The position numbers and the translations under genes were made by a program. DNA of 64,000 bases. Source: Candidatus Pacearchaeota archaeon. GTDB lineage: Archaea > Nanobdellota > Nanobdellia > Pacearchaeales > GW2011-AR1. Every line of letters begins with the position of its first letter. The first letter of the stretch is position 1. The notes under the pieces were generated by a model, which was not told the DNA's origin, made no database searches, and worked only from the letters and a program-made list of their open reading frames with translations. Of this stretch, positions 3,116 to 32,645 are shown in pieces. The stretch is from positions 86,183-150,182 of the forward strand of contig JAFCEL010000001.1 in the NCBI GenBank assembly GCA_017609205.1, given 5' to 3'.

Positions 3116-4252
3116 ATGTCTCAAAAAGAAAATAAAAAATCAAGAAAGAAATTATGGTTGTGGATACTATCAATTATATTTATTGTTGGAGGAATGAGCA
3201 CTTTATCAGATTCTTTTTTTGCAGGAGTCTTTGCATTTGTGGCGGGTGCAATAATTTGTCCTCCAATTATTAATATTATTAAAGAAAAATCAGAGGGTAA
3301 AGCAAAAACTTGGATATTTGTAACTGCTTTTATTGTCTTAGTGTCTTTTAGTGGAATGGCTCTTCCAAATTCAGAGAATTTTCAAAAGGATATATCCTTG
3401 CCCTCAACAATAAACATTATCTCGGATGTTAACCTAACAATACCTGAAAATACAAAAGAAGCAATCTCTAAAACAGAAGTTTATAGATACTGGAGTAATA
3501 ATATAAATGATGGACAAAAAAAATTAACTCTTCTTCATTATAATAAAGAAAGATATGGAAAATTTCTGGAATATTTAGACTCACAAAATCTTAAAGAAGA
3601 TTTTAAAAGATTGTGTGGTAACGAATTAGTGCCTAAAGACATGCTTGTTTCTAATGAAAGGGGTCTCTTTCTCCATATTGGATTAGATGATGGATTTGCT
3701 GTATGTGACTTTGTTTCTGAAGAAATAACTTCTGAATTTGAAAATCAAGAAAATACAACTCAAAAACAAGCCCAACAAAAATGTATCCCTAATTGGAAAT
3801 GCGGAAAATGGACAATCTGTTCTAACGAAGTTCAAACAAGAATATGCACAGATAAGAATGATTGTGGAACCATTGAAGAAAAACCTATTGAAACCCAAAA
3901 TTGTAAAGATTATGATTTAGAGATGAGTATAGACGAACTATTAAATGAGTTTAGCGGATTAACAAAACTTCAGCAAGAAGAAAAAATTAAAGAATTAAAA
4001 GGTAAAAGAATAAAAACATCAACAACGGCTTATAAAATAGACAAAGCCTCACTTTCTACACAATATGTAGTTATGGATGATGATTATCTCTATCCATCTG
4101 TAAAAGCTTTCTTTCCTGCTGAAGAAAAAGATAAACTTCTAAAAGTAAATATTGGGGATAAGATAACATTCATCGGCGAGTTTGTTACATATAAACAAGG
4201 AACATATGTGCCTAGTTATGTTGAATTTACAAAGTCAAAATTGGTAGGTTAG
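3116..4252 (+). CDS. membrane-anchored protein with an extracellular Cys-rich module
   Basis: N-terminal hydrophobic helices. Contains the motif CIPNWKCGKWTICSNEVQTRICTDKNDCG. Confidence 0.6.
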   Translation: MSQKENKKSRKKLWLWILSIIFIVGGMSTLSDSFFAGVFAFVAGAIICPPIINIIKEKSEGKAKTWIFVTAFIVLVSFSGMALPNSENFQKDISLPSTINIISDVNLTIPENTKEAISKTEVYRYWSNNINDGQKKLTLLHYNKERYGKFLEYLDSQNLKEDFKRLCGNELVPKDMLVSNERGLFLHIGLDDGFAVCDFVSEEITSEFENQENTTQKQAQQKCIPNWKCGKWTICSNEVQTRICTDKNDCGTIEEKPIETQNCKDYDLEMSIDELLNEFSGLTKLQQEEKIKELKGKRIKTSTTAYKIDKASLSTQYVVMDDDYLYPSVKAFFPAEEKDKLLKVNIGDKITFIGEFVTYKQGTYVPSYVEFTKSKLVG

Positions 4253-5433: not shown

Positions 5434-5798
5434 GCGAGCTTTATCTTGGGTGGGCAAGAAAATTGATTTTTATTTCTACTAACATATGCGATTAAGCGAC
5501 CCGTAGGGCTCGAGCGGAACGGAGTGACCTCGAGAGTTCAAAATCTTTGATTTTGAATTTGGGAAAATTATGGCTTTTAAGAAAAAAGTGAGCGAATGCT
5601 AAAATAATTTTCCGCTTAATCTGCTGTTGCTTGACCGAACGAAGTGAGGCACGAGCTGGGCTAAAAAAAGCCCCTCGTGAGTTTTAATTTTTCTTTTCAG
5701 GTTGGGGGAGGAGGATGGTTTCTCCGACGACAAAAAAATTAGAGAGATTGCCCGCTCGTTTTTTGCTTCTTCTTTTCTAAAAAAGAAATTTGGGCACT
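5434..5798. repeat. G/C-enriched non-coding island C
   Basis: Contains GCGATTAAG (5488-5496), the CTCGAG-loop-CTCGAG hairpin, AATTTGGGAAAA (5556-5567), CCTCGTGAGT (5673-5682) and GGATGG (5713-5718). Has a terminal hairpin plus TTTGGGCAC. Confidence 0.6.
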
Positions 5799-5810
5799 TT
5801 ATCTTTGTTT
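5783..5810. repeat. left arm of an imperfect inverted repeat flanking the RiPP-like operon
   Basis: AAGAAATTTGGGCACTTTATCTTTGTTT. Its reverse complement matches 8298-8327 (14-nt exact core AAAGATAAAGTGCC, one mismatch, one 4-nt indel, then AAATTTCTT). Confidence 0.55.
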
Positions 5811-6464
5811 TAGATACTCAATACATTTTTTTAAAAGTTTTTCAAAATCTCTTTCTTTTTTCCATTTTTTTGAAATATAATTTCTCAGATTTCTCGTTTG
5901 TAAATATCCGACATCCTTAGCAAACCATAAATCTCTAAACTCCAAATTAAGCAAAACTGTTAAAGATTCATTAAGAAAGTTAAATTTGTCATCACCAAGG
6001 AGCCCCCTTAATCTATTCCCATAAGAATTATCAACATGAATATGAAACAACTCATGCCCACAAGTTCTTACTGCCTGTAGCAAAGGACGTTTCAATGAAA
6101 CTGTAAAAGAATTATCTTCATAATAAGCACATCTCCCAACAGTAGTAATGTAAGCGTCAAAATTTTCTAAAGAAATTTGCTTATTTGTAATCTTTTCTAA
6201 CCTATTAAAATACTCATCATTAATACTTTTCCAAGATTTATCCAAAGACTCTCTAAAAAATTCTATGTATGGGGATACATGCAATCTTTCTAAATTTTCC
6301 AATATTTCTCTTTTTGAATCCAAAAAAGATTTTCCTTTAAATGCCCGTATATAATTTGAGTTTAAATCTGTCTTCTCATCTTTCCAAGAACATTCATAAT
6401 TACATAATTGCCAAAAATTTAATGCATCTCTTTCCTTATCAAATTTAAAATTAAGCTTGCTCAT
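5799..6464 (-). CDS. HExxH-motif protein, putative zinc metallopeptidase
   Basis: CGHELFHIH motif. Last gene of the four-gene overlapping operon. Confidence 0.55.
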   Translation of the reverse strand: MSKLNFKFDKERDALNFWQLCNYECSWKDEKTDLNSNYIRAFKGKSFLDSKREILENLERLHVSPYIEFFRESLDKSWKSINDEYFNRLEKITNKQISLENFDAYITTVGRCAYYEDNSFTVSLKRPLLQAVRTCGHELFHIHVDNSYGNRLRGLLGDDKFNFLNESLTVLLNLEFRDLWFAKDVGYLQTRNLRNYISKKWKKERDFEKLLKKCIEYLKQR

Positions 6465-6984
6465 TTTTTAAAATTAAGAATATTAAATTATGTTTATGTG
6501 GAAGAAGATTTGAATGTTCTTCTATTTCTGTTTCACCTTGTAATTCTTTTTCTAATTTCCACCCTTCGTAAAAAGATAATATTTCTTCTTTTGTGGGAAA
6601 AAATTTCCCCTTACTTTTCATGCTATCTAAATTAGACATACAAATAATAAGGTTATATCCTCCATGTGAAGTTGAAGTTTTCATCTTTTCAAATAATTTG
6701 TGAATTTTATCTTTGTTGAAAAAATGCAAGATTAAAGAGGCAATTATTAAATCATTATCTTTTCCAAAATCTTCTGTTGTTATATCCCCCGATATAAATT
6801 CAAAATTTTTAAAGGCACCATCTTCAAAAGCATTCCTTTTATCAATTCCTTTCGCACTTATTCCTTTTCTGCTAAAAAATAAAGACATTAAACCTTTTCC
6901 GCATCCTAGATCCAAGACCTTTTTCAATTCTTTATTTTGAAAAAAATTCAAAAATTCACTTTTACTTTGTTTTATGTTTATCAT
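6451..6984 (-). CDS. class I SAM-dependent methyltransferase
   Basis: Motif I VLDLGCGKGLMS. Overlaps both neighbours. Confidence 0.75.
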   Translation of the reverse strand: MINIKQSKSEFLNFFQNKELKKVLDLGCGKGLMSLFFSRKGISAKGIDKRNAFEDGAFKNFEFISGDITTEDFGKDNDLIIASLILHFFNKDKIHKLFEKMKTSTSHGGYNLIICMSNLDSMKSKGKFFPTKEEILSFYEGWKLEKELQGETEIEEHSNLLPHKHNLIFLILKNEQA

Positions 6985-8065
6985 TTTCTAGATATTCCTT
7001 AAAGCACATTGGGTCTTTTGTCATATAATCCCTTGTTATTGCATAAGCTACTGCTCTGCATCCTCTGCAATGAACAACTTTGTCACATAAAGATTTTTCC
7101 CTTATTTTATTTAAATCTCTTAAATCTTGCATAACTTCACTTTCTAAAACTAAATTTCTAAAGCCTTCTTTAATGTTTCCTATAGGAATTGGGAGTCTTC
7201 TGCAAGGATACACTGTTCCATCAGAAAGAACGGAAAGCATTCTAAATCCTGCAGAACATCCACATAAATAAGTATTATTCTCTTTTGATTTTTTGATTAA
7301 ATCATTTTCTCCGTTTTGAAAAATTTGCCATAAAACATCGGATTGCAAAACAGTTATTTTTCCTTTATATTTTTCTACTAAACTATTTGTCTTTTTTAAC
7401 ATTTCATAAACCTCAAAGGAATTGACAAATTTAGGATCTTTCGCTCCCAATTTAGAATCTGGGACATAAGTTTTGAATCCGACTTTTTTAGCACCTGCAA
7501 GATAAGAGTTTTCAATTACTTCTTCAAATTCATCCATGTTTTGCTTCATTAAAGTCATTGCAGAAACAACAGAAATTCCTTCTCTTGAGGCATTACTTAT
7601 TCCTTCCATTGCTTTATCATAAGCGAATTTTCTTCCTCTTATTTTATTGTGAGTTTCTTTTGTTCCATCAATAGAAATTTGAATAGTATCAATTCCTCTC
7701 TCTTTAATTTCTTTTGCTTTTATAGGAGTAATTAATGTTCCATTTGTTAATAAATTAGTAATAACTTCTTGTTTTTGAGTATAATCAAAAATTTTTAGAT
7801 GATCCTTTCTCATTAAAGGTTCTCCCCCTGAGATTGCTATCCTTGGAATCATATCCCATCTTTCTGCAGTTTCTTTTAAATCATCTATCATTGAGAAAAC
7901 ATCTTCTAAACCCATAGGCTCTTTAAACTGTTTGTGGAATGAATTTCCTTCAGAACTATGATAACAATGAGAACACCTTAAATTACACCAATCTGTTGAG
8001 TCCCACTGCAAATAAAGATGTCTTTTTGCCATTTGTTGAAGAGGCAAATTTAATCTAAAAAACAA
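6962..8065 (-). CDS. radical SAM enzyme with C-terminal SPASM-type Cys cluster
   Basis: CNLRCSHCY (CX3CX2C) near the N-terminus. C-terminal CGCSAGF...DGTVYPC...GNI...CDKVVHCRGC...DPMC. The start may be the internal MAKRH at 8029. Confidence 0.9.
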   Translation of the reverse strand: MFFRLNLPLQQMAKRHLYLQWDSTDWCNLRCSHCYHSSEGNSFHKQFKEPMGLEDVFSMIDDLKETAERWDMIPRIAISGGEPLMRKDHLKIFDYTQKQEVITNLLTNGTLITPIKAKEIKERGIDTIQISIDGTKETHNKIRGRKFAYDKAMEGISNASREGISVVSAMTLMKQNMDEFEEVIENSYLAGAKKVGFKTYVPDSKLGAKDPKFVNSFEVYEMLKKTNSLVEKYKGKITVLQSDVLWQIFQNGENDLIKKSKENNTYLCGCSAGFRMLSVLSDGTVYPCRRLPIPIGNIKEGFRNLVLESEVMQDLRDLNKIREKSLCDKVVHCRGCRAVAYAITRDYMTKDPMCFKEYLENDKHKTK

Positions 8066-8256
8066 CCATCATCTGATGCACAAGCATCAGGACCACAAGC
8101 ATCACAAGGATCACAGTGATACTTATCTTTAGAAAGGTTGTATTTTTTCACCTCATCTCTTGGACCGTACTCTCTTACCTGATAAGGTAGGGGAGTCATA
8201 CCACTCAAAAAATCTACTTCTTTTGCTGTTAGCTCAAGTTTGTTTGATTTTTCCAT
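8050..8256 (-). CDS. candidate RiPP precursor peptide (68 aa)
   Basis: C-terminal HCDPCDACGPDACASDDGCFLD (5 Cys, 6 Asp) after a charged leader-like region. Its stop overlaps the radical SAM ORF. Confidence 0.6.
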   Translation of the reverse strand: MEKSNKLELTAKEVDFLSGMTPLPYQVREYGPRDEVKKYNLSKDKYHCDPCDACGPDACASDDGCFLD

Positions 8257-8673
8257 AAATCTTAAGAGTATTAAATCTTTTTAAGTTTTGTTATTGTAAA
8301 AAGATAAAGTGCCTAAATAAATTTCTTGCGTAGCAAGCTTATTTGTTTTTCTGAAAAAAACTAAGCGCACACCTCCTATCTGGGGCGGGTGGTCGGGGGA
8401 TGGCAAAAGACAATTTTATCATTCTTGAAAAATTATATTTAGCAAAGAACAAAGAAAGATTGGTGATTTATCCAAGCGAAAGCGAAGATAGATTTCAATT
8501 TGGACGCAGTCTGGGAACATCGCGATTAAGAGAAGTTTGCGGAACGAAGTGGAGCAAATTTGGGAAAATGCCGAGCTGAGTGTTTTTCCGTTTAAGCCCT
8601 GTTAAACTCCCCGAGCGTTAGCGAGAACGCAGCGTGGTCGAGGAGCGAAGCGACGCAGAATTTTCATATTTCA
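8257..8673. repeat. G/C-enriched non-coding island D
   Basis: Contains GGATGG (8398-8403), GCGATTAAG (8522-8530), the hairpin TTTGC-GGAACGAAGTGGA-GCAAA, AATTTGGGAAAA (8557-8568) and a GCGAAG-rich tail. Confidence 0.6.
8298..8327. repeat. right arm of the inverted repeat flanking the RiPP-like operon
   Basis: AAAAAGATAAAGTGCCTAAATAAATTTCTT. See 5783-5810. Confidence 0.55.
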
Positions 8674-27757: not shown

Positions 27758-29437
27758 TTACATCTCCTCTAAAGTTTTAATTCCTAAAAGATTTAAAGAA
27801 TTCCTCAAGACAATCTTAAAAGAATTCACAAGTTTTAATCTGAATTCTTTATTTTCTGAATGTATCACCGGACAAGCATGATAAAATTCATTAAAAATTT
27901 TTGCAAGCTCAAAGGAATAATTTGCAATCAGCGACGGATTAAAATTCTTATAGGCATTCAATACAATCTCTGAAAACTGCGAAAGTTTTTTTACAAGCTC
28001 TATCTCTATTGGCTCTAATTCAGGAACAAAAAAAGTTCTCTTTTTGAAATTAGATTTCTTAATTATAGAGTTCGCACGGGCATATGAATAAAGAAGATAA
28101 GGTCCGGTATCACCCTCGAAGTTTAAAGCATCTTTTTTTATAAAAATTATATTCTTGCGGGGGTTTTGTCTCAGCATAGAATATTTTATTGCGGCAATTG
28201 AAACAGCTAATGCTCTTTTTTCTAACTCACGTTTAGGTATTTTCAAAGATCTCTCTTGAAGCCTCTTTGCCGCAAACTCAGAAACATCTTTAATAAAATC
28301 AGAATAAAGAATATTATCTCCTGTTCTAGATGACATTTTCCCCTCAGGGAACCTAACCATCCCGAAGGGAATATGTGAGAAAATCTTTGAATTTTTCAAT
28401 TTCATTAACTCCATTGTTTTAAACAATTGTTTAAAATATGTATCCTGCTCATTTCCTATCACTATCAAAGATTTGTCTAATTTATATTCTCTTAATTTTC
28501 TTTCAGCAAGTGCTAAATCTTTTGCAGAATACAAAACAGTTCCATCGCTTCTCAAAAGAACAAGAACACCTAATGAATATTTTTCCAAGTCAACAATAAC
28601 AGCGCCGTCGCTTTTTTTTGCAATTTTCTTCTTTAATAATTCATTAGTAATTTCTTTTCCTCTTTTCTCAACTTCACTCTCAAAATAATGAATATCAAAT
28701 TTTGTGCCTAGTTCCCTATAAATTCTTGTCCAGGATTTTATTGAGAGTTTTCGTGTCTTTTTCCACAATCGATTTATTTCTCTGTCAGACTTGTTCTCAA
28801 TTTTTCTATTTATTTCATCCACTTCGTTCTGGAATTCCTGATTCTCAGAGAGTCGCTTGACAGCGTCGACATAAATTGATGATATCCATGCCTCATCATC
28901 TTTTAATTCCTCTTTTGAGTGATATTTCCTGTAGCACCAGATCCATTTTGCTATATGCATACCTGTATCACCACTATAATTTGCACGAATTACTTTTTCC
29001 CCAAGAAATTCTGAAATCCTCGCTAAAGATTCGCCTAAAGAAGTTCCACGAATATGTCCTACGTGAAATGCCTTATGAGTATTTGGCTGAGAGAATTCTA
29101 TCATAACTCTTTTCTTTCCTAAATAAGAGCTTCCAAATTTATCTTTTTCTTTCAAAATCTTTTTAATCAAGTTTTCTGCAAATTTCTTCCGGTTCAAGAA
29201 GAAGTTTAAATAAGGCCCTGATGCCTCAATATAACTGAATCCTTTTGGAAGTTTTATTTTTGATTTTAAATCGAGAGCTATTTGTTGAGGGGATTTTCTC
29301 AATTGCTTTGAAAGAGAAAAACAAGGAAAAGCAAAATCACCCATTGCTGATGATGGGGGGATTTCAATCATATTCTCAATTTCTGATTCAGTTAATCCCA
29401 CTTCTTTTTTTATTGATTCTGCAATAAGTTTTTTCAT
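27758..29437 (-). CDS. argS: arginyl-tRNA synthetase
   Basis: FSQPNTHKAFHVGHIRGT (HIGH) and a C-terminal anticodon-binding domain ending in Met. Confidence 0.9.
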   Translation of the reverse strand: MKKLIAESIKKEVGLTESEIENMIEIPPSSAMGDFAFPCFSLSKQLRKSPQQIALDLKSKIKLPKGFSYIEASGPYLNFFLNRKKFAENLIKKILKEKDKFGSSYLGKKRVMIEFSQPNTHKAFHVGHIRGTSLGESLARISEFLGEKVIRANYSGDTGMHIAKWIWCYRKYHSKEELKDDEAWISSIYVDAVKRLSENQEFQNEVDEINRKIENKSDREINRLWKKTRKLSIKSWTRIYRELGTKFDIHYFESEVEKRGKEITNELLKKKIAKKSDGAVIVDLEKYSLGVLVLLRSDGTVLYSAKDLALAERKLREYKLDKSLIVIGNEQDTYFKQLFKTMELMKLKNSKIFSHIPFGMVRFPEGKMSSRTGDNILYSDFIKDVSEFAAKRLQERSLKIPKRELEKRALAVSIAAIKYSMLRQNPRKNIIFIKKDALNFEGDTGPYLLYSYARANSIIKKSNFKKRTFFVPELEPIEIELVKKLSQFSEIVLNAYKNFNPSLIANYSFELAKIFNEFYHACPVIHSENKEFRLKLVNSFKIVLRNSLNLLGIKTLEEM

Positions 29438-30829: not shown

Positions 30830-30913
30830 GCGGGAGTGCCGGAGTGGTCAAACGGGCAGGACTTAAGATCCTGTGGCTTAGTGCCTACGCAGGTTCGAAT
30901 CCTGTCTCCCGCA
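30830..30913 (+). tRNA. tRNA-Leu (anticodon UAA)
   Basis: Acceptor GCGGGAG/CTCCCGC, anticodon stem CAGGA/TCCTG with loop CTTAAGA, long variable arm, T-loop GGTTCGAATCC, discriminator A. No encoded CCA. Confidence 0.9.
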
Positions 30914-32367: not shown

Positions 32368-32645
32368 GGGGGATTGTAATGTAGACCAGGTCGGCGGGTT
32401 AGCCCTCCGCCAATTGCAAATGGGCTTTAGGCAGACTGCAAGGAAGTCGGTGATAGGAGCGTTGGAGAAGTCTTTGTTCGGACGTTGACGTTTTGTCCTT
32501 CTCGACCTTGCAGATGCGAACTGGGTCAGGCCTTGACCGGAGCAGCCCTAAACATTTGTTAAGGTGCTTGAAGGGTAGCAGAACCGAGGAAGAACAGAGG
32601 TAGCTTTTTCAACTATCCTTGAGCTGGCTTTCGGGTCTACACTAA
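32368..32645 (+). ncRNA. signal recognition particle RNA (archaeal 7S)
   Basis: G/C-rich island. 5' TGTAAT Alu-domain motif. GGGTCAGGCC...CCGGAGCAGCC S-domain-like motif. 5' GTAGACC pairs with 3' GGTCTAC. TTTAAATA box upstream. Ends are approximate. Confidence 0.7.

Follow-up and report, generated by a model that had tools for sequence, protein, structure and literature searches.

The window analyzed here is a stretch of 64,000 nucleotides (nt) from the genome of a Candidatus Pacearchaeota archaeon (contig JAFCEL010000001.1, positions 86,183 to 150,182). At positions 5799–8256 it carries a cassette of ∼2.5 kb on the minus strand, which encodes a short Cys- and Asp-rich peptide, a radical S-adenosylmethionine (SAM) enzyme with a SPASM domain, a methyltransferase and a protein with an HExxH motif. 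The reading that we favor, and consider reasonably probable, is that this is a DPANN-specific maturation cassette of the RiPP type (RiPPs being peptides made on the ribosome and modified after translation), in which radical SAM chemistry would install thioether bridges, with methylation of the product and, in the clade of the window (clade a), removal of the leader. Comparison of related loci indicates that peptide, enzyme and methyltransferase genes are conserved and diversify together as one unit. An earlier note on this DNA had proposed a RiPP-type precursor with its maturase and methyltransferase in an archaeon of reduced genome; the recurrence of this triad across DPANN loci, together with the enzyme tree described below, bears the proposal out at the comparative level.

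All four minus-strand open reading frames (ORFs) listed in that note are present at the positions given in the ORF track, where they overlap by 16, 23 and 14 nt and carry the motifs CNLRCSHCY (radical SAM enzyme), VLDLGCGKG (methyltransferase) and CGHELFHIH (HExxH protein). The peptide gene (8050–8256) encodes 68 amino acids (aa) plus a stop codon, the methyltransferase gene (6451–6984) 177 aa and the HExxH gene (5799–6464) 221 aa, and the 23-nt overlap is that between the enzyme and methyltransferase genes. The 16-nt overlap between the peptide and enzyme genes is likewise found in the ORF track (enzyme ORF 6962–8065), but as biology it does not stand, since it is counted from an upstream TTG. 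Homologs of the enzyme are ∼356 aa long and align from the sequence MAKRHLYLQWD, and a gene of 356 aa is also called in the JGI annotation; the enzyme therefore probably starts at the ATG at 8032 (6962–8032, 356 aa), which leaves a gap of 17 nt to the peptide gene.

The most telling feature of the cassette is its peptide. Residues ∼1–45 are the predicted leader and residues 46–68 the Cys/Asp-rich core, and the C terminus, HCDPCDACGPDACASDDGCFLD, holds 5 Cys and 6 Asp. The leader contains the sequence TAKEVDFL (residues 10–17; 8206–8229, minus strand), which follows a family pattern of [S/T]-x-x-E-x-x-[F/Y/L]-L, and the core region, YHCDPCDACGPDACASDDGCFLD (8053–8121, minus strand), contains a C-x2-C-x2-C element, which in the family mostly has G after it and Y-x before it. 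On these features the 68-aa product is a precursor with an [S/T]xxExx[F/Y/L]L leader and a C-x2-C-x2-C-G, Asp-rich core. An alignment of 17 peptides spanning all core types shows no variation at E13 and L17 of the leader or at C51 and C54 of the core, and conservation of at least 90% at C48; the leader motif is also found in 10 further peptides from a profile search with type-a sequences.

The peptide gene is tied to the enzyme gene across the family. We surveyed 30 loci from species-representative genomes, together with loci reached through the HExxH protein, and 27 were informative. In 26 of these 27, all in metagenome-assembled genomes (MAGs) of Pacearchaeota, Woesearchaeota and Nanoarchaeota, the radical SAM/SPASM gene has a short Cys-rich ORF as its direct upstream neighbor; the sole exception is locus L024, where the enzyme gene is truncated. 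Absence or lack of conservation of the small ORF beside enzyme homologs had been put forward as grounds for abandoning the RiPP proposal, and the survey finds the reverse. In the relative L001, from a Candidatus Pacearchaeota MAG whose enzyme is 92% identical to that of the window, the peptide gene differs by 13 synonymous and 9 non-synonymous codon changes. Of the 26 nucleotide differences, 16 fall at third positions, and little has changed in the core (3 synonymous changes and 1 non-synonymous). This pattern of purifying selection argues that the peptide ORF is a real gene and more than a chance reading frame. With a conserved leader, a variable core, an adjoining modifying enzyme and co-inheritance with it (26/27 loci and the enzyme tree), the peptide has the general attributes of a RiPP precursor.

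The peptide cores fall into at least five types, namely a (Y-x-CDPCDxCG...), b (YTCVTGCSDCVSCDGND), c (CYDCDSCNSCGSGDCNSCC), d and e. All type-a relatives have CDPC[DE][AG]CG, and most cores, of whatever type, finish in or near Asp. The core of the window contains C48-x3-D52, C59-x3-D63 and several CX2D spacings, whereas in the other core types such motifs are few or the spacings differ. A word-based protein search found only four close relatives of the peptide. Its relatives include sequences of 70%–85% identity and the identical peptide, which is present on JGI metagenome contigs and on an NCBI contig of 511 kb. An exhaustive HMMER search with a type-a profile added ∼10 further clusters, all of type a; the remaining core types were reached solely through gene neighborhoods. 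The peptide of the window has no match in Pfam, NCBIfam or PHROGs.

Some relatives carry interrupted peptide genes. In L006 (1276–1509) an in-frame TAG separates leader and core, and in L004 (∼1790–1996) and L023 (∼3751–3957) the leader and core lie in different frames, near an A-run. Since the L004/L023 peptide is also known in intact form (P0251), these cases may be assembly errors or pseudogenes.

A neighbor-joining tree of the enzyme separates exactly by core type (a, a2, a3, b, c, d and e) and by accessory genes, and this correspondence supports the peptide as the enzyme's substrate. The cassette is patchily distributed, being found by a pattern scan in only 29 species representatives, with genomic contexts that differ among close relatives. 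The close homologs of the enzyme all lie in MAGs labeled Pacearchaeota, Woesearchaeota or Nanoarchaeota, and the genes that flank the cassette in the window are archaeal housekeeping genes (S27ae, S24e, Spt4, Rpb7, ScpA and thermosome); the assignment of this DNA to a reduced-genome archaeon was therefore right. Decayed-looking cassettes also occur: L035 (2878–4672) and L025 (4001–5813) keep only the C-terminal (SPASM) half of the enzyme, with intact methyltransferase and HExxH genes after it, and L024 (3573–4541) lacks the peptide and has truncated forms of both the enzyme and the methyltransferase.

The enzyme belongs to the radical SAM superfamily (Pfam PF04055, 98.9 bits against a cutoff of 29.5) and carries a SPASM domain (PF13186, 33.1 bits against 21.5), in agreement with its fold matches and with its initial identification. 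The radical SAM cluster motif, C16-x3-C20-x2-C23, is invariant in 114 homologs, as are six C-terminal Cys with the spacing C259-x17-C277-x38-C316-x5-C322-x2-C325-x17-C343. A SPASM-type C terminus with seven Cys had been noted; the protein of the window does have seven, but C257 is not conserved among the 114 homologs. The canonical SPASM set comprises seven or eight Cys, including a CX2CX5CX3C block, and ligates two auxiliary clusters. In the present family the corresponding block reads N-x2-C-x5-C-x2-C, with N313 in place of the first Cys, as the alignment with CteB shows, and a CX5CX2C spacing. AhbD's C223 (cluster I) and C312 (cluster II) have no counterpart, and by homology each auxiliary cluster would therefore have three Cys ligands. 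CteB is described as having a cluster I of this kind, with three Cys and an open iron site at which maturases that form C–S bonds bind their substrate (PMC10452713).

We placed the enzyme among SPASM families by ranking hidden Markov model (HMM) scores and by matches to the Protein Data Bank (PDB). Among NCBIfam models it scores highest with that of the ACGX system, TIGR04340 (183 bits, E = 8.6e-54), followed by AhbD (164.5 bits) and NirJ2 (159 bits); all three matches are full length, against cutoffs of 400, 500 and 500. The PapB model NF047865 gives 85.6 bits against a cutoff of 340, SkfB-type 78.6 against 300 and CcpM 73.8 against 500. The enzyme is thus, as judged by these models, a member of no curated family, and is not PapB, SCIFF or AhbD; the earlier suggestion of a PapB-type maturase is not upheld, the best matches lying instead with ACGX and AhbD/NirJ. 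These scores would place the enzyme between putative peptide maturase and cofactor enzymes. Its best sequence matches in the PDB are SkfB (3.9e-24) and CteB (8.8e-22). An AlphaFold2 model of the enzyme (predicted local distance difference test score, pLDDT, of 90) is most similar in Foldseek to SkfB, PqqE, SuiB, BlsE and the anaerobic sulfatase-maturing enzyme (anSME), with SkfB as the best fold match. These are SPASM or Twitch enzymes, most of which act on peptides or proteins. That the closest solved structures are peptide maturases (SkfB and CteB by sequence; SkfB, PqqE, SuiB and anSME by fold) supports a peptide substrate.

Most prokaryotic radical-SAM RiPP systems have a RiPP recognition element (RRE), either fused or encoded next to the enzyme, but none of the four proteins matches the PqqD-like RRE model PF05402, and no gene of that kind recurs in the neighborhood. 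The radical SAM motif already begins at residue 16 of the enzyme, so there is no room for a fused N-terminal RRE. Nor is any transporter or immunity gene recurrent in the cassette neighborhoods.

The third gene was correctly recognized as that of a methyltransferase from its VLDLGCGKG motif. It is of the TehB type and class I SAM-dependent, with a Pfam PF03848 score of 64.8 bits against a cutoff of 20.4 (9e-18), and its best sequence matches in the PDB are TehB structures (1.5e-12). The NCBIfam TehB equivalogs score 63–77 bits against cutoffs of 218–303, which points to a TehB-like fold rather than TehB itself. The gene partners the enzyme gene in almost every locus, lying divergently upstream of it in two (L005 and L026).

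The fourth gene is a clade-a accessory. Among 39 sequences of the HExxH protein, H137, E138, H141 and E166 are invariant, which gives HExxH-x24-E, the arrangement of gluzincins, in which a downstream Glu provides the third zinc ligand. Families M1, M4 and M61, which include the lanthipeptide leader peptidase EryP, are gluzincins; the present protein differs from them as a compact domain of 221 aa with no Pfam match and no significant fold match. Pfam SprT-like reaches 16.5 bits, below its cutoff of 25.6. The AlphaFold2 model (pLDDT 94.9) is a single compact, mostly helical domain, and its weak Foldseek matches are mostly M4, M1 and M61 peptidases and EryP (best E = 0.15, TM-score ∼0.3). None of ∼120 homologs has a Pfam domain, and every name given by the sources is "hypothetical protein." Zinc-peptidase function is likely from the invariant residues, and the protein probably serves as a leader peptidase in clade a, a role that its partial linkage to the cassette weakens. 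Linkage of the HExxH gene to the cassette is confined to clade a, and L001, in which the flanks differ on both sides of the cassette, lacks the gene. Homologs of at least 43% identity sit in cassettes, one of them without a methyltransferase and another with a truncated enzyme gene. The proposal of a complete set of precursor, maturase, methylase and leader peptidase thus stands for its first three members, which form one unit, but not for the HExxH protein, which is not a constant member.

Accessory genes are modular, in the manner of biosynthetic clusters, which speaks for the RiPP reading. Where clade a has the HExxH gene, clade b has a gene for a DUF3419 protein (BtaA-like SAM-dependent transferase fold) and one for an APH-like kinase. 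In the clade-b loci (L009 5584–7192, L016, L021, L011, L012 and others; core YTCVTGCSDCVSCDGND) these two genes follow the methyltransferase gene and occupy the place of the clade-a HExxH gene. In a further locus, L037 (3696–6421), a 41% identical HExxH homolog lies between a gene for an ArsR-type helix-turn-helix protein and genes for cysteine desulfurase, DUF1858 and NifU proteins, an Fe–S assembly context with no cassette nearby.

In the mechanism that we propose, the radical SAM/SPASM enzyme would bind the leader motif of the precursor without an RRE domain and cleave SAM to a 5′-deoxyadenosyl radical, which would take a hydrogen from a residue of the core. Cys sulfurs would then be joined to carbons of nearby residues in thioether bridges of the sactipeptide or ranthipeptide type, with the three-Cys auxiliary cluster I offering an open iron site to the substrate thiolate, as in CteB. 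The likeliest acceptors would be Asp side chains and the C-terminal Asp or other terminal residue, because most cores end in or near Asp and because PapB forms both Cys–Asp/Glu thioethers (PMC9413430) and links from Cys to the C-terminal residue (PMC12373016). The translationally coupled TehB-like methyltransferase would next methylate the peptide at a remaining thiol or a carboxylate, and in clade a the HExxH...E zinc peptidase would cut off the leader. Thioether cross-linking would most likely be the enzyme's chemistry.

Several points weigh against this proposal. The modifications are predicted from comparison of sequences, and the C-x2-C-x2-C element could simply bind metal. The enzyme reaches the cutoff of no curated peptide-maturase family, and AhbD and NirJ2 score almost as high as ACGX. 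Auxiliary cluster II lacks its first Cys (N313), which is atypical of known thioether synthases. Export and bioactivity are without support, as no RRE, transporter or immunity gene is present. For the HExxH protein, the model gave no significant match in Foldseek, and homologs at 36%–41% identity lie away from any cassette.

The thioether systems of SCIFF/CteB, PapB and SkfB share with the present one a C-terminal Cys-rich core behind a leader, with a SPASM radical SAM enzyme encoded beside it. By sequence the nearest solved structures are SkfB and CteB, CteB has a three-Cys auxiliary cluster I (PMC10452713), and in the window core a Cys followed two or three residues on by Asp resembles the CX3D sites of PapB (PMC9413430). 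In contrast, HMM scores against PapB, SkfB-type and CcpM enzymes lie far below their cutoffs, no RRE is fused or encoded nearby, a methyltransferase is present in almost every locus and the hosts are DPANN archaea.

Among curated models the ACGX system (TIGR04340 enzyme, TIGR04341 repeat peptide) is the closest, and its enzyme profile of ∼341 aa leaves no room for an N-terminal RRE either. The ACGX system is uncharacterized and defined only bioinformatically, and its peptides consist of tandem ACGX repeats, unlike the cores described here, which hold a single [A/S]-C-G-x element (DACGP, NSCGS or VSCGG) within CxxCxxC. The enzyme score stays well short of the ACGX cutoff, the NCBIfam peptide models, at E up to 10, fit none of the 17 peptides, and the near-constant TehB-like methyltransferase partner is a further difference.

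We regard the cassette as belonging to a kind already known, that of Cys-rich RiPPs modified by radical SAM/SPASM enzymes; of the DPANN family itself we found no description in the searchable literature. It is conceivable, although we think it the less probable view, that the cassette instead represents a new RiPP class that is neither ranthipeptide nor sactipeptide. Its RRE-independent maturase, closer to the heme enzymes AhbD/NirJ than to the characterized maturases of peptides and with two three-Cys clusters, would carry out an undescribed chemistry on the invariant C-x2-C-x2-C-G, a TehB-like methyltransferase would add a methyl group (possibly to sulfur) as an obligatory step, and episymbiotic archaea would use the product on a host or competitor.

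An alternative that keeps both the cassette and the peptide substrate, and that we rate as unlikely, is that the enzyme performs some other chemistry: oxidation of Cys to formylglycine, as by anSME, epimerization, C–C or other cross-links, or a reaction new to an AhbD/NirJ-like clade, with the methyltransferase capping the product. The highest TM-scores to the enzyme model belong to anSME (0.71–0.73), which likewise has no RRE; the nearest curated HMMs are either uncharacterized (ACGX) or non-thioether (AhbD and NirJ); and two auxiliary clusters with just three conserved Cys each are unusual. However, several Cys are invariant in all cores, as is typical of thioether RiPPs (SCIFF, sactipeptides and ranthipeptides), and SkfB and CteB lead the sequence matches to solved structures. 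For an anSME-type reaction in particular, the recognition motif C-x-P/A-x-R is missing from most core types.

The gene set also parallels the mycofactocin and pyrroloquinoline quinone (PQQ) systems, in which case the C-terminal residues of the peptide would be modified, excised and methyl-tailored into a cofactor or metal-binding factor for the cell's own redox or metal metabolism, and not for antagonism. We consider this improbable. The enzyme scores 94.7 bits with MftC and 88.5 bits with PqqE, to which its fold is also similar, and the lack of a transporter or immunity gene, the adjacency of one distant HExxH homolog to cysteine desulfurase and NifU genes, and the classic metal-binding spacing of C-x2-C-x2-C would all fit. 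Cofactor precursors, however, keep an invariant reactive motif, whereas the five types of core differ strongly among clades except in Cys, and a patchy distribution over 29 species representatives in varied genomic contexts fits an accessory trait better than a core cofactor.

Less probable again is that the enzyme is a tetrapyrrole enzyme of the AhbD/NirJ type and the small Cys-rich ORF an unrelated metal-binding protein. The AhbD and NirJ2 models match over their full length, the enzyme's length and Cys spacing (x17, x38, x5, x2, x17) are almost those of Methanosarcina barkeri AhbD (PMC10452713), and JGI and some other sources name several homologs "AdoMet-dependent heme synthase" or heme synthase. 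Assignment to AhbD by TIGR04545 takes at least 500 bits and a siroheme-pathway context, yet the AhbD score is about a third of that, no other heme-pathway or tetrapyrrole gene lies in any cassette neighborhood, and two of the eight SPASM Cys of AhbD, the C223 and C312 ligands, have no equivalent. This explanation also leaves the strict adjacency of the enzyme to a Cys-rich peptide gene, and their co-diversification, without an account; because of these adjacency and co-diversification data it fits poorly, as does the last rival. A viperin-type radical SAM antiviral module on a mobile accessory island, for which the PADLOC pVip match (1.1e-22), the variable context among close relatives and the inverted repeat that brackets the operon in this genome might speak, is scarcely credible, given that the pVip match is confined to residues 9–184, the generic radical SAM core, that viperins have neither a SPASM domain nor a conserved Cys-rich leader–core peptide, and that relatives are not found on viral contigs nor the repeat at other loci; we have rejected the defense reading accordingly.

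In the DNA around the cassette, an inverted repeat of 19 nt, AAAGATAAAGTGCCYAAAT, frames the operon exactly. Its upstream arm, AAAGATAAAGTGCCTAAAT (8300–8318, unstranded), lies 44–62 nt upstream of the peptide ATG, and its downstream arm (5788–5806, unstranded) covers the last codons and stop of the HExxH gene. The arms match at 18 of 19 positions, and 0 of 60 shuffles were as good. In 15 other cassettes, inverted-repeat matches did not rise above those of their shuffled controls. L001 retains the upstream arm ahead of its own cassette, so this arm is probably a promoter-region element. The cassette had been described as sitting in an accessory block bounded by repeats. The accessory part of this agrees with the varying context among relatives, but the repeats amount to one 19-nt inverted repeat in this genome, and we reject a repeat-bounded mobile unit as a general feature, no relatives having been found on viral contigs. 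A scan for bacterial-type promoters and terminators was uninformative, as its models are bacterial and the host is archaeal.

Between the convergent GNAT and HExxH genes lies a GC-rich, hairpin-rich, non-coding region (5434–5770) with a minimum free energy of −107 kcal/mol (z = −3.5 on the plus strand and −2.8 on the minus strand relative to shuffled controls), which may be an unannotated structured RNA. Neither in gathering mode nor with E up to 1 did Rfam match anything in the operon flanks, this region included. Four copies of the motif CGRAACGRAGTGR are present in the window (5515–5527, 5635–5647, 8540–8552 and 28819–28831; 0.09 expected by chance), three of them in the operon flanks, and two of these seem, by eye, to lie in the loops of hairpins whose closing stems differ (CTCGAG/CTCGAG and TTTGC/GCAAA). 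Genes for GNAT and NUDIX proteins adjoin the cassette in this genome only and are not conserved with it. In the non-coding gap upstream of the peptide gene, JGI calls a 59-aa ORF (8400–8579, plus strand), the homologs of which are confined to contigs of the same species; this is probably not a gene, and the region folds no better than shuffled controls.

Elsewhere in the window, a predicted membrane protein of 378 aa (3116–4252, plus strand) has a Cys-patterned segment, CIPNWKCGKWTICSNEVQTRICTDKNDCG, that resembles motifs of the large Cys-rich proteins encoded upstream of the L004 and L023 cassettes (35% identity over 79 aa). Rfam identifies an 84-nt tRNA (30830–30913, plus strand) and, in this archaeal genome, a signal recognition particle RNA segment (32489–32585, plus strand), the score of which, 40.8 bits, only just clears the cutoff of 40 set for the bacterial small-SRP model.

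To our knowledge, no natural product of a DPANN archaeon has been characterized. In a survey of archaeal RiPPs, antiSMASH predicts radical-SAM RiPP clusters in DPANN genomes, of which none is characterized, and archaeal RiPP products are reported only for haloarchaeal lanthipeptides (PMC12144867, the references 27 and 28 of which deal with spliceases and triceptides); this agrees with the description in the earlier note of archaeal radical-SAM RiPPs as essentially uncharacterized. Large radical-SAM RiPP datasets select loci by association with an RRE or an ABC transporter (PMC10288494), and the present cassette falls outside such filters because it has neither. Similar blind spots in genome mining may exist elsewhere. 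With ∼120 members, the family to which the HExxH protein belongs is an unannotated one of small metallopeptidase-like proteins. The enzyme, with its odd ligand set, would stand between SPASM proteins of the heme-synthase and peptide-maturase types and so bears on how SPASM enzymes switch substrates. The cassette is small and directly amenable to co-expression, and its three or four genes are conserved and diversifying in MAGs of Pacearchaeota, Woesearchaeota and Nanoarchaeota.

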